In this document: positions 13,994-49,729 of the stretch, one piece after another
How positions within the stretch are numbered: the stretch's first letter is position 1
Layout of the letters: every line of letters begins with the position of its first letter
Source of the DNA: Lachnospiraceae bacterium
Lineage (GTDB): Bacteria > Bacillota > Clostridia > Lachnospirales > Lachnospiraceae
Assembly: GCA_015057375.1 (NCBI GenBank)
Contig: SVEM01000003.1
Coordinates: 10,778 to 74,777, forward strand
Length of the DNA stretch: 64,000 bases
Reading direction: 5' to 3'
Notes under the pieces: generated by a model
What the model was told of the DNA's origin: nothing
Seen by the model: the letters and a program-made list of their open reading frames with translations, nothing else
Database searches by the model: none
Made by a program: the position numbers and the translations under genes

Positions 13994-14066
13994 GGGATCT
14001 TAGCTCAGCTGGGAGAGCATCTGCCTTACAAGCAGAGGGTCACAGGTTCGAGCCCTGTAGGTCCCA
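13994..14066 (+). tRNA. tRNA-Val(TAC)
   Basis: Acceptor GGGATCT/AGGTCCC; anticodon arm TCTGC-CTTACAA-GCAGA; GGTTCGA T-loop; CCA not encoded. Confidence 0.97.
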
Positions 14067-14107
14067 TTTATAACGTCTTTTGAGATTATCTTAAAGGACG
14101 TTCATAT

Positions 14108-14181
14108 GGCGAGGTAGCTCAGTTGGCTAGAGCACGCGGTTCATACCCGCGGTGTCGGGGGTTCAAATCCCTTCCTCGCTA
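14108..14181 (+). tRNA. tRNA-Met(CAT), elongator type
   Basis: Acceptor GGCGAGG/CCTCGCT; anticodon arm CGCGG-TTCATAC-CCGCG; lacks the initiator GGG/CCC pairs. Confidence 0.93.
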
Positions 14182-14264: not shown

Positions 14265-14475
14265 AGGTGCAAAAAACTTTTTGACTATTCGCTTTCACAC
14301 CAGCCTTTACATGAAAGTATCTATACAGAAAAAACTTCTATTTTGAACTCCATTTTTTGAAGATTTTTCATGGGATTTTGCTTGAAAAGTATCTATAGCG
14401 AAGAAATTACAAAAATGACCCCCATTTTCAATAAAAAATGGGGGTCGAATTTCAACATTTTTTCATATAGATACT
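14265..14475. repeat. Array of 38-bp bipartite units (AGTATCTATA-N19-GAMCYCCAT), no adjacent cognate gene
   Basis: Direct units 14316-14353 and 14388-14425; inverted unit 14438-14475; possible divergent unit 14265-14302. Confidence 0.75.
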
Positions 14476-45468: not shown

Positions 45469-46242
45469 ATGGTCGGAGCAATATATGCATTTATCGGAAC
45501 GTTATTTACATTTCTTATAACTACGCTTGGTGCGGCAAATGTTTTTTTTGTCAAACAGCACAGAAATGAAGATATTCAAAAGGTATTTCTCGGGTTTGCG
45601 GCGGGAGTAATGACAGCCGCGTCGATATGGTCACTTCTTATCCCTGCAACGAATGAAGCCGAGAAAAACGGACAGATAAGCTTTATTGTGGTGCCGGCAG
45701 GGTTTATCATAGGTGTAGTTATTTTGCTCCTTCTTGACAGATTTGTAAAGAAGAGGGAGTTTGAAAAGCTGAGTATAAAAAAGAATACTTTTATGATGAT
45801 TGTAGCGATAACTATTCATAACATACCGGAGGGCATGGCTATCGGTCTTGCATTTTCGCTTGCCGCTCAGAATAACATGGATAGCGGACTTTTTATGGGA
45901 GCTGTGTGTCTTGCCATAGGAATCGGAATACAGAATTATCCTGAAGGGGCAGCTGTTGCACTACCTTTGAAGGGAGAAGGGTTGAGTAGGAAAAAGGCGT
46001 TTTTGCTCGGCAGCATGTCGGCTGTGGTTGAGCCGGTGTTCGGCGTACTTGCCGCGCTGTTTGCCGGACTTATCGTGCCTGCGTTCCCGCTTCTTCTGTC
46101 ACTGGCAGCAGGAACCATGATATATGTCGTTGTTGAGGAACTTATACCGCAGGCGCACATGAGTGAGAAAGACACTATCGGCACGCTCGGGTTCATAGTG
46201 GGATTTTTACTTATGATGATACTTGATGTGGCGGTGGGGTAG
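45469..46242 (+). CDS. ZIP family metal transporter
   Basis: GFAAGVM, HNIPEG, IQNYPEG, AAGTMIYVVVEELIP. Confidence 0.93.
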   Translation: MVGAIYAFIGTLFTFLITTLGAANVFFVKQHRNEDIQKVFLGFAAGVMTAASIWSLLIPATNEAEKNGQISFIVVPAGFIIGVVILLLLDRFVKKREFEKLSIKKNTFMMIVAITIHNIPEGMAIGLAFSLAAQNNMDSGLFMGAVCLAIGIGIQNYPEGAAVALPLKGEGLSRKKAFLLGSMSAVVEPVFGVLAALFAGLIVPAFPLLLSLAAGTMIYVVVEELIPQAHMSEKDTIGTLGFIVGFLLMMILDVAVG

Positions 46243-46478
46243 GTGGGCATTCTCAGAGAAATGTGAGTGATTATGCCCACGCGGAAGCATTTTGCGGGCA
46301 AAAATTGGTGGAAATGGGCATAGTGGCTTGGTGCAAAGTTAATTATGCCCACATATTTTTGAAAACATGGGCATTTTCTGTGGATGCAGATATATTTGTG
46401 CCCATACGTATCGTTTAAAGTTATACGTTGCGAGTGAAAATAGGCATAAACTAACATATCATCAACAATTATACCCAT
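46243..46478. repeat. Array of four 38-39-bp inverted-arm units (RTGGGCAT-N22/23-ATGCCCAY)
   Basis: Units 46243-46280, 46314-46352, 46367-46405, 46440-46478; linkers 33/14/34 bp. Confidence 0.85.
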
Positions 46479-47249
46479 TTAAAGAAAATAGTGTTCAATA
46501 ATTTTGTTGATAGTATCAACATCAATCGGATTTTCTTTGGTTTCATAAGTTGTAATTAGGTGGATTGCGGGCAAGATACCATGCGAAGAGTAAAGTTGTA
46601 ATTTTGAAAAAGCATTTTTAGAATAATTTGGATCGTCCATTAATCCAAAATGTTCCCAGTAGTAAATGTTACCCGTTTTGGGATGCCGAATAGTAAAATC
46701 AGGGAATAGTGTAAGTTCCCCCAAATACAAGGCACATTCATAGCGGAAGGGAATTTTGTTTGTATATAAAAGCATATCAATGATTGCCTCAGATTTGGAA
46801 CGAAGCAAATGACCGGAAATACTTTTATGTACTAAATGCTCTGGATGTTTGGGATTATGCTCATAAGATGCGTGCATCCAGTCAGACAAATCTTGAGATA
46901 ATGGCGTAAAATATGAAGATAATAAAGATTGAAATTCAGGATGATTCAATAATTCATTTGCATTGGATTTGTTAGAATGATTTTTTGAAAAAAACTCGAT
47001 TGCGTGTTGTTCTTGATTTAGATCTGTTAAAAGTGAATTTAGATATTTTCTGAGTGCAAGTTGACTTGCAAGAGTTTTTTGTTTTTTGGGAATGTAAGAA
47101 TACGTATGCTCGTTTCTTTGATACCATTTGTAATACTTGCCATTTTTAGTACAGATGATATTTCCAGGTGGCAAACTTTGTAGTTGTTGCTCGATTTTCT
47201 TGATTTGTAATTTGTTTTTATTATATTGATTTTGAATTTGAGTGTAAAT
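46479..47249 (-). CDS. PD-(D/E)XK/DUF559-Vsr-like putative endonuclease with N-terminal coiled coil
   Basis: RSKSE..I...L, FRYE, PDFTI, YWEHFG; frame open upstream of 47174 to a GAGGAGG RBS and ATT 47249. Confidence 0.75.
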   Translation of the reverse strand: MYTQIQNQYNKNKLQIKKIEQQLQSLPPGNIICTKNGKYYKWYQRNEHTYSYIPKKQKTLASQLALRKYLNSLLTDLNQEQHAIEFFSKNHSNKSNANELLNHPEFQSLLSSYFTPLSQDLSDWMHASYEHNPKHPEHLVHKSISGHLLRSKSEAIIDMLLYTNKIPFRYECALYLGELTLFPDFTIRHPKTGNIYYWEHFGLMDDPNYSKNAFSKLQLYSSHGILPAIHLITTYETKENPIDVDTINKIIEHYFL

Positions 47250-47397
47250 AGATATTAGCCTCCTCTTTAGTTATTGTGTTTAAGCCAGCACCCAATTTTA
47301 AATATGAGTATACTAAACGTATACTTATTTTGCAAGGATGATTTTTGTTGACAAGATATTCTAGTGAGAAGATAATGTTGGTATAGGAGGTTATAGT

Positions 47398-47988
47398 GTG
47401 AAATATCCTGAAATAAGTATTAGAAACACAGAGGTAGATTTGATTATTGACAGTCAAGGAAATGAAATATCAAGAGTTCTTGATTACTGGAAGTGGGCTC
47501 ATTCATGTTTAATAGATAATGCTGAGCGTGGGACATTTGCTGAGTATTTAGTGGCATGTGCAATTGGCGGTATAGGATCAGGCAGGGTGAATTGGGATAA
47601 ATATGATTTGATTTCGGAAGAAGGTATAACTGTGGAGGTTAAGACATCCGCATATATTCAGACATGGGGACAAGAAAAATTATCTTCGATTCGTTTTGGA
47701 ATTCGTAAAACCCGCGGCTATAATTCGTATAATAATTCATATGATTCTGATAAAAAAAGACAAGCTCAAGTTTATGTTTTCTGTGTTCATGCTGAAAAAC
47801 AACAGGAAAAAGTGAATGTGCTTGATACCACACAATGGAAGTTTTACGTTTTGTCCTCAAAAATATTGAATGAAGATAAACATTATTCAGATGCTGAATC
47901 TATAGGATTGGGACCATTAATAAAATTGGGTGCTGTGGAGTGTCAATATGAAGAATTATATAAAATAATTAAAGAACAAGCGGAATAA
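47398..47988 (+). CDS. Hypothetical restriction-endonuclease-fold protein
   Basis: RG.FAEYLV helix, WD.YDL...VEVK (D-EXK); GGAGG RBS, GTG start. Confidence 0.7.
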   Translation: MKYPEISIRNTEVDLIIDSQGNEISRVLDYWKWAHSCLIDNAERGTFAEYLVACAIGGIGSGRVNWDKYDLISEEGITVEVKTSAYIQTWGQEKLSSIRFGIRKTRGYNSYNNSYDSDKKRQAQVYVFCVHAEKQQEKVNVLDTTQWKFYVLSSKILNEDKHYSDAESIGLGPLIKLGAVECQYEELYKIIKEQAE

Positions 47989-48820: not shown

Positions 48821-49255
48821 ATGGAAAAGTATTATACACTTAATGAAGTAGCAATGATGACAGGATTAACAACAAGAACGCTTAGAAATCACTTAAAAAT
48901 GAATGTGTTAAAAGGTGAGAAGTTTGATGGCGTTTGGAAATTTACAGAAGAGGAATTTGCAGAGTTTATTCAGAATCCTTATGTAAAGCCAAGTTTGCAA
49001 GCAAAAAATAAGGCTATTGTTTTTGATTTTTTAGCACAGAATGAAAAGCGAATAAATGAAATATGTACAATTATTGATGTGTTTGTAGATTCTCATGAGG
49101 CAGAAGAAATATCAACTTTCTTTTGTGAGGAAATAAATAAGAGAAATGAAGGTAATATAAATTTTTCTTTTGAAAAGAATGGTTCCTATATAAGAGTTAT
49201 TTTAAGAGGATATGAAGATGCTGTTATGGAAATTTTGAATGCTTATTATAACTAG
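48821..49255 (+). CDS. Helix-turn-helix (MerR/excisionase-like) domain protein
   Basis: YYTLNEVAMMTGLTTRTLRN...G.K..GVWKF. Confidence 0.8.
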   Translation: MEKYYTLNEVAMMTGLTTRTLRNHLKMNVLKGEKFDGVWKFTEEEFAEFIQNPYVKPSLQAKNKAIVFDFLAQNEKRINEICTIIDVFVDSHEAEEISTFFCEEINKRNEGNINFSFEKNGSYIRVILRGYEDAVMEILNAYYN

Positions 49256-49262
49256 GCACTTG

Positions 49263-49439
49263 AAACTTTCAGTTAGTAGGTGTATCGCCATGCCGACAGG
49301 TTCGTAAGCTATCGCTTACTCACTGTCGCGGCGTTCGCCGTATGCATCTTCGCGCGAATGCGCCTGCCTGTGTGCGAGCACTCGGCAGTCACCTTCGGCT
49401 CATCTGCGCATGGCTCATTGCTACGCGCAAACTTTCAGT
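49263..49439. mobile_element. GC-rich multi-hairpin insert flanked by 11-bp direct repeats (MITE/REP-like)
   Basis: AAACTTTCAGT at 49263-49273 and 49429-49439; several internal stems. Confidence 0.45.
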
Positions 49440-49487
49440 CTTGTGGCGAGATTAAAAACAGATGAATTGGAATTTGTAGGTTGCGAT

Positions 49488-49729
49488 ATGGCAGAGGTAT
49501 TAAATGCATCACAGAGCAGAAATTACAGAAGCAAAGCAGATGAAAGTGCAGTAGCAGATGTTTTGGAAGTGTATTCTGCCGGAACAGAAACAAAACCTGA
49601 AATCAATCAAGATGCAGTCAGAATTATGAAAGAAATGTATAGTATTGATATGAAGCAAACCCAGTATTCAAAATAATAATCAAGAAAATTGAAGAAAAAG
49701 TTTTAGAGTTAAGAGGCAAATACGAATAG
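49488..49729 (+). pseudogene. arsC: Decayed arsenate reductase (ArsC, LMW-PTP fold)
   Basis: YSAGTETKPEINQDAVRIMKEMY.IDM..TQYSK then stop; C-terminal IKKIEEKVLEL in another frame; CX5R loop and middle missing. Confidence 0.7.

Follow-up and report, generated by a model that had tools for sequence, protein, structure and literature searches.

Helically phased repeat arrays accompany a predicted Vsr-like nuclease family in Lachnospiraceae and other Clostridia

Introduction

CRISPR and TIGR arrays are built of regularly spaced 36–39-bp units with fixed ends and variable middles. Short intergenic repeats of the REP/BIME/REPIN type are associated with RAYT (TnpA-REP) genes, and their origin, spread and persistence are described as still open (PMC5581495, PMC8266576). 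In REPtrons, a nuclease gene of low copy number lies among short intergenic repeats of its own, with many gene-less copies, tandem arrays and several gene/repeat families per genome. It has also been reported (PMC3239194) that the EDxHD homing endonuclease I-Bth0305I forms homodimers, carries its Vsr-like catalytic domain at the C-terminus and has a long footprint.

Here, we analyzed a locus that resembles each of these systems in part. It shares with REPtrons all of the features listed above and with CRISPR and TIGR arrays the fixed ends, variable middles and similar unit length, and I-Bth0305I is the best fold match of its predicted nuclease. An earlier note, made from the DNA alone, had proposed that this gene and the array abutting it constitute an undescribed system, and no description of such a system was found in the open-access literature searched.

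Results

Array at the nuclease locus

The window analyzed is a stretch of 64,000 nucleotides from a Lachnospiraceae genome, and all positions below refer to it. The 236-bp gap between the stop codon of a ZIP gene (ending at 46242) and the TAA of the nuclease gene (46479–46481) is filled by an array of four units, to which no strand is assigned. Unit 1 (46243–46280, 38 bp) has inverted half-sites, GGGCA...TGCCC, with centers approximately 29–30 bp apart and a unique core. Unit 2 (46314–46352, 39 bp) lies 71 bp after unit 1, unit 3 (46367–46405, 39 bp) lies 53 bp after unit 2, and unit 4 (46440–46478, 39 bp), which is slightly degenerate (AGGCA...TACCC), abuts the nuclease stop codon. Linkers are 33, 14 and 34 bp and periods 71, 53 and 73 bp; these values were re-derived and agree with the palindrome-ended 38–39-bp units, linkers and periods of the earlier note. 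Linker 1 contains an extra lone GGGCA half-site (46296–46300, + strand), in helical phase and 51 bp from the unit-1 half-site. Cores are all different, with a mean identity of 0.41. The pattern GGGCAT-N15-30-ATGCCC had 2 matches in the window versus 0.05 expected, a number reached in 1 of 100 shuffles.

Nuclease gene and predicted protein

The nuclease gene (46479–47249, − strand) encodes 256 aa. Its frame stays open for 256 codons, beginning with an ATT at 47249 that is likely a non-canonical start and is located 9 nt after an AGGAGG Shine-Dalgarno-like site (47259–47264, − strand). Among 96 close homologs, a heuristic search found no ATG, GTG or TTG at ribosome-binding distance in 60, and ATT, ACG, ATC or ATA at this distance in 55.

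In the AlphaFold2 model, a helix (residues 2–24) is followed by a three-stranded β-sheet (residues 30–53; 47091–47162, − strand), a long helix (residues 55–90; 46980–47087, − strand) and a C-terminal domain, with the predicted PD-(D/E)XK/Vsr-like nuclease at residues 116–256 (46482–46904, − strand). The RSKSE, YE, PDF and WEH motifs noticed earlier were found in the translation, and the coiled-coil N-terminus proposed along with them was also predicted by modeling. Residues E154, E171, D184, E199, H200, G202, Y209 and E236 are conserved in 99–100% of 207 homologs. Whole-protein sequence searches of Pfam, NCBIfam and PDB gave no match, and a VIA fold search with the whole model returned coiled coils only. 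The C-terminal domain modeled alone had a pLDDT of 97, and in VIA it matched I-Bth0305I (Z 8.7, rmsd 2.8, 90 residues aligned), TnsA (Z 8.3, rmsd 3.3, 115 aligned), Bax1 (Z 7.9), NGO0050 (Z 7.6) and Vsr (Z 6.9, rmsd 3.9, 103 aligned); the top rows were dominated by the PD-(D/E)XK fold, with moderate Z values. Foldseek agreed weakly (best E 3e-3, all E > 0.001). The domain is thus predicted from models to be a restriction-endonuclease-like (PD-(D/E)XK/Vsr-like) nuclease. Of the former label, DUF559/Vsr-like, the second half holds as a fold resemblance only and the first was dropped: Pfam called no DUF559 in the focal protein or 54 homologs, nor was DUF559 among the 25 families listed for 119 members. 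Pfam and NCBIfam searches also gave no Y1_Tnp and no relaxase family match.

Homodimer prediction gave a score of 0.63 compared with 0.01 for the best control; among solved structures, 20 of 30 homodimers and 1 of 23 monomers attained this score. Between runs, 75% or more of the contacts were the same, with pLDDT of at least 83. The protein is therefore predicted to dimerize through an antiparallel coiled coil, the long helices crossing near residues 83–87. The distance between the two sheets, estimated from standard helix rise rather than taken off the model, is approximately 90–110 Å, compared with approximately 100 Å for half-sites 29–30 bp apart, so the modeled dimer is of about the right length for half-sites spaced ~30 bp apart.

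Three-stranded-sheet DNA-binding domains include integrase arm-binding and AP2-type domains. For residues 20–75, a β-β-β-α topology was predicted, with no PDB or Pfam match and an Atlas lead to DUF6788 at 0.82–0.87. A small protein resembling DUF6788-type proteins (locus L014, G000:C32:12562-12822) consists of the N-terminal helix/sheet/helix module alone, without the nuclease domain.

Several other features were seen around the gene. Upstream of it, a 13-bp inverted repeat around GTATAC (47301–47331), a possible operator, lies over a weak promoter-like match. A 196-aa ORF (47398–47988, + strand) has no Pfam match, is apparently missing from one strain's contig and carries a D...EVK motif of PD-(D/E)XK-like appearance. 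This divergent neighbor was considered as a partner of the nuclease and rejected, as it does not recur and one strain contig departs at 47497 into sequence matching ~48010. In faecal runs, contig depth is very high at ~49100–49600 and many contig ends there are loose; this segment is a multicopy element or gene fragment before a fucosidase-like gene. Contigs of runs X5 and X10 differ by ~12% in the N-terminal reader part and leader (47067–47391), and one contig of run X3 differs by ~6% over the nuclease gene versus ~1% in flanking genes, differences that represent allele exchange or related species.

Distribution of the gene and its association with arrays

Relatives of the protein numbered 2,959 at E ≤ 0.001, the titles of the closest records being mostly from Lachnospiraceae, and a profile of the C-terminal domain matched 3,309 clusters (50% identity) at E ≤ 1e-30, a count that includes helicase-fused domains. 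The family was present in at least 112 of 401 Lachnospiraceae genomes and in 20 of 300 genomes sampled throughout the class Clostridia; within the genus of the window it was patchy (1 of 12 genomes). A viral collection yielded only two partial matches, neither with an array, and no full-length homolog was found on 72,556 plasmids.

From 281 loci with a match, 277 complete genes were obtained and reduced to 208 at 90% identity, of which 187 had flanks of at least 400 bp on either side. Within 500 bp, 102 of these 187 non-redundant homologs had an array of three or more units, compared with 0 of 120 control genes of the focal genome. The other 85 had fewer than three detected units nearby; these loci have degenerate arms in some cases and arrays located elsewhere in others. 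Downstream arrays, which the earlier note had expected of homologs, prevailed only in close relatives (at least 45% identity; downstream in 39 of 89, upstream in 14), whereas in distant homologs (<33% identity) the array was upstream in 46 of 74 and downstream in 4, which widens the system. Arrays of at least three units were also present at 5 of 13 loci from other families (L323–L339). Arm sequences vary by clade and include GGGYA, GGGTC, GGACA, GTATC, GTACC, CCGTA and TGACC.

Among neighbors of the homolog genes, 122 ORFs were scanned with NCBIfam (142 extracted; short and near-duplicate ones dropped) and 63 were named. These included two transposases and no defense genes, the rest being unrelated housekeeping genes. 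Some loci recurred across species (spoIVB 4 times, spoVA 4 times).

We found that 394 array periods, in counts inflated by tandem duplicates, cluster at 42, 51–54, 61–64, 70–75, 80–85, 92–95 and 105–108 bp, with none at 55–60, 65–68 or 86–91 bp. Almost all of them are whole helical turns (resultant 0.67 at 10.3–10.4 bp). This helical phasing, together with placement on both sides of the gene, points to recognition of duplex DNA, and the protein likely reads the repeats in double-stranded form. The association with 102 homologs and no control gene, the whole-turn periods and the covariation described below bear out the earlier proposal and support a widespread, apparently undescribed system of predicted nuclease plus array.

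Covariation of protein residues and arm bases

The earlier note had asked whether arm sequence tracks the protein, and it does so at the sequence level. In 62 close homologs with a readable arm consensus (arm calling was confined to one pattern family), the top covarying columns for arm bases 2, 3, 4 and 5 were residues 36, 34, 34 and 50, all located in the sheet, of ~256 columns compared; the shuffles used ignore phylogeny. All 21 rows with Ala34 had T4, and 18 of the 21 with Thr/Val34 had C4 (agreement 39/42). Agreement was 61/62 for Asn36 with a GG start and 56/62 for Lys/Arg50 with C5. The focal protein, with T34, N36 and Y50, has the GGGCA arm that this code predicts. The covariation of arm bases with residues 34, 36 and 50 of the predicted sheet is new here, and residues 30–53 may be inferred to form the DNA reader.

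On quick trees built without the sheet, the states of the code residues change 5–13 times, so the pattern does not reflect one clade. An underpowered independent-pairs test on well-supported branches gave five pairs for residue 34, of which 4.4 agreed in direction and 0 were opposed (p 0.125); for residue 50 the corresponding values, 1.7 and 0.5, were mixed. Ten further loci comprised three near-copies of training rows, three without a detected array (L344, L347, L352) and four held-out loci that fit the code (L340, L342, L343, L351), L340 doing so against its nearest training relative. Three genomes with loci outside the training set (G057, G084, G063) had orphan arrays of the predicted type, although these orphans had been seen before the residues and the comparison was not blind; those of G370 agree as well. 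Exceptions to the code are L189 and G186, predicted arrays were not found in G092 and G416, and the GGACM pattern had 2 matches in G419 versus 10 control matches, which is a weak test. Counts of codon changes within strain groups were mixed.

In each of the 8 genomes in which two co-resident close paralogs were readable, their residue triplets differed. For example, L071 and L088 of the same genome are 79% identical and have different reader residues and different arms (GGGTA and AGGCA), likely a recent specificity switch after duplication.

Gene-less arrays and copying

The focal genome has three full paralogs, two of them ~29% identical to the focal protein, and each has a separate arm sequence, with gene-less arrays to match. 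GGGYA orphans were found at three loci with at least two units and at one contig end, the cognate GGGCA form being on contigs C21, C40 and C42. The TAGGRC family comprised 14 loci including the gene's own, and the CCCAT family 4 loci. The TAGGRC pattern had 40 matches in the focal genome versus 0 in five congeners. By a hand count in which kin are not independent, at least three GGGYA matches were present in 8 of the 27 genomes that have a close-clade gene versus 3 of the 373 that lack one (Fisher p 2e-8); the remaining 19 of the 27 mostly had other arms or none found. Arrays thus do occur apart from the gene, a finding that the earlier note would have counted against the system; because multi-copy orphans occur mostly in genomes with the cognate gene, they widen the system rather than refute it. 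Similarly, its idea of a locus-specific self-recognition array is retained with regard to co-evolution with the protein but not to locus specificity, as orphans are genome-wide.

The array at 14.3 kb of the window (14317–14474, no strand assigned) had been noted as a geometry-matched orphan. Its periods, 72 and 53 bp, do match, but its arms, GTATC/GGGTC, are of a sibling specificity and not cognate to the focal protein, and no cognate gene was found in the focal assembly (87% complete). By eye, two tRNA-like genes lie directly before it (~14003–14180).

In G268, which had 124 GGGTC matches, the orphans resemble each other and have 50–110 bp of flank in common with one another and with the gene-linked array, which at the sequence level indicates copying. 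The ends of these arrays are ragged, with no target duplication or terminal repeats seen. GGGCA orphans of the focal genome had no alignable sequence in common with the gene-linked array beyond the arms, only arms and spacing being shared; these arrays are old, or selected for arms and spacing alone. Strain contigs of one protein carried 2–6 units, with growth by duplication of doublets (51+82 bp). Contigs aligned to the focal locus showed no junction with gene or array removed. An apparent gene duplication in G718 was 100% identical across all 3,771 bp and was treated as an assembly artifact. In the sequence read, no array was present downstream of 12 other ZIP homologs (10 congeners) or 4 rubrerythrin orthologs. 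Because downstream genes differ and synteny breaks next to ZIP and rubrerythrin, these sites fix no filled/empty pair or insertion point.

Discussion

Possible mechanism and alternatives

Co-occurrence of gene and array, phasing, clade-specific arms, cognate orphans and changes in copy number were all observed. We consider it somewhat more probable than its converse that the protein binds the phased half-sites as duplex DNA and that the predicted nuclease maintains and spreads the arrays in a RAYT/REP-like manner. Of the options raised by the earlier note, the best supported is a REP/RAYT-like element whose phased DNA sites are served by a non-HUH nuclease, with mobilization as its conjectural part. 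Two subunits would pair through the antiparallel coiled coil and place one sheet on each half-site, ~30 bp or three turns apart. Bases 4 and 3 would both be set by residue 34: Thr or Val would give C and Ala T at base 4, and Val or Cys would give A at base 3. Asn36 would go with the GG start and Lys/Arg50 with C at base 5, and whole-turn periods would align neighboring dimers on one face of the helix. In the weakest and most speculative step, the Vsr/TnsA-like domains, predicted to lie near the partner's sheet, would nick or cut beside the units. Recombinational repair would then expand or contract arrays and now and then copy them, together with part of their flanks, into other intergenic sites, leaving no target duplications; the host must be presumed to supply the repair because the PD-(D/E)XK fold has, to our knowledge, no strand-joining chemistry. 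Enzyme levels would be held low by the weak start codon.

A guarded defense nuclease is an unlikely alternative. Arrays would dock the enzyme in an inactive state, and phage-driven loss or degradation of host DNA would release it, as in abortive infection or a DNA antitoxin. This proposal draws on homology of the nuclease domain to the C-terminus of the PADLOC candidate PDC-S68 (134 of 134 members, focal E 1.8e-31) and of RecD-like helicases, on weak start codons and on binding evidence that it has in common with the preferred explanation. However, the focal protein has no helicase domain, the 63 named neighbors held two transposases and no defense gene, and a sponge needs neither rapid specificity switching nor different arms in co-resident paralogs.

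It is distinctly less probable that the arrays are a host-tolerated scaffold, which the protein binds or bends as an operator or nucleoid organizer while ordinary recombination spreads them and the nuclease is incidental. The arrays directly upstream in 46 of 74 distant homologs, the phasing and the recurring spoIVB and spoVA loci would fit such a role, but arrays are mostly downstream in the close clade (39 of 89 versus 14 upstream), catalytic-type residues are 99–100% conserved and orphans are lineage-specific. We regard as very improbable a role as oriT-like sites, from which a PD-(D/E)XK relaxase-like enzyme would let co-resident conjugative elements mobilize DNA: inferred phased binding sites with a cognate nuclease and the patchy distribution (1 of 12 genomes in the genus) are compatible with it, but there was no relaxase family match, no full-length homolog on the plasmids and no conjugation gene among the 63 named neighbors. 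Finally, co-transcribed hairpins processed into guide or antitoxin RNAs (CRISPR/TIGR-like), another option of the earlier note, are scarcely credible: the differing focal cores, the 3′ position of the focal array and an array RNA with more stable folding than its shuffles (z about −2.5 for either strand) would suit them, but this both-strand gain is modest, as inverted arms would give, the gene-sense centroid fold loses most unit hairpins, duplicate cores at least 80% identical occur in 51 of 61 arrays of distant homologs and 11 of 56 of close ones, no Rfam match was above threshold, the best phage and plasmid matches of cores had E 0.8 and 0.7 (a weak test, the phages of this host group being poorly sampled), arrays lie on either side of the gene and sometimes upstream of a consensus promoter (L015), and linkers vary by whole helical turns.

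Taking RAYT-like maintenance and spread as the preferred reading, we regard a broader proposal as evenly balanced: a new selfish or domesticated gene-plus-repeat class of gut Clostridia, in which a ruler dimer would recognize two 5-bp half-sites three turns apart through a three-residue code, cut beside them and build and scatter its own helically phased arrays, as a second, independently evolved REP/RAYT-like system acting on duplex DNA. The family would provide a second case, with different chemistry, of the origin, spread and persistence of short intergenic repeats. It lends itself to direct testing, since the protein changes in step with its site and swaps of single residues come with a predicted site. 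As a common family (112 of 401 Lachnospiraceae genomes, and other Clostridia families), it would explain a class of unannotated gut and rumen repeats. As a compact predicted dimer with a readable code, the nuclease could serve as an engineering scaffold and, if the reading is true, the family is a natural library of reprogrammable site-specific nucleases.

Comparison with known systems

Unlike CRISPR and TIGR arrays, the arrays described here have no unique foreign spacers and no cas or Nop-domain genes, and they are helically phased. PDC-S68 and RecD-like helicase-nucleases have a homologous C-terminal nuclease domain, which likely explains, judging from sequence, the name "ATPase" on one homolog; however, they are ~1,200-aa helicases without the reader/coiled-coil module, and no array was detected in the downstream flanks of two such genes. 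Tn7 TnsA resembles the domain in fold (Z 8.3 over 115 residues), but no TnsB or TnsC partner recurred among the named neighbors, and array ends are ragged, without terminal repeats or target duplication. In contrast to I-Bth0305I, the focal gene is free-standing and intergenic rather than in an intron or intein, its motif is RSKSE/PDF/WEHxG, and its inferred sites adjoin the gene and multiply, whereas a homing enzyme cuts the empty allele.

REPtrons remain the closest counterpart, in that the cognate repeat of the nuclease-array system both flanks the gene and is dispersed genome-wide. The differences concern protein and repeat alike. The nuclease protein has no HUH motif or catalytic-tyrosine transposase fold, its sole invariant His being H200 in WEHxG. 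The unit profile has no GTAG or other conserved tag, in contrast to the tag beside a hairpin-forming palindrome of 20–50 nt in REP/RAYT systems. Units pair by 5–7-bp arms alone around a free, non-complementary core of 20–25 bp, and helical-turn spacing suggests duplex recognition by a protein sheet, compared with the single-stranded hairpin of REP/RAYT.
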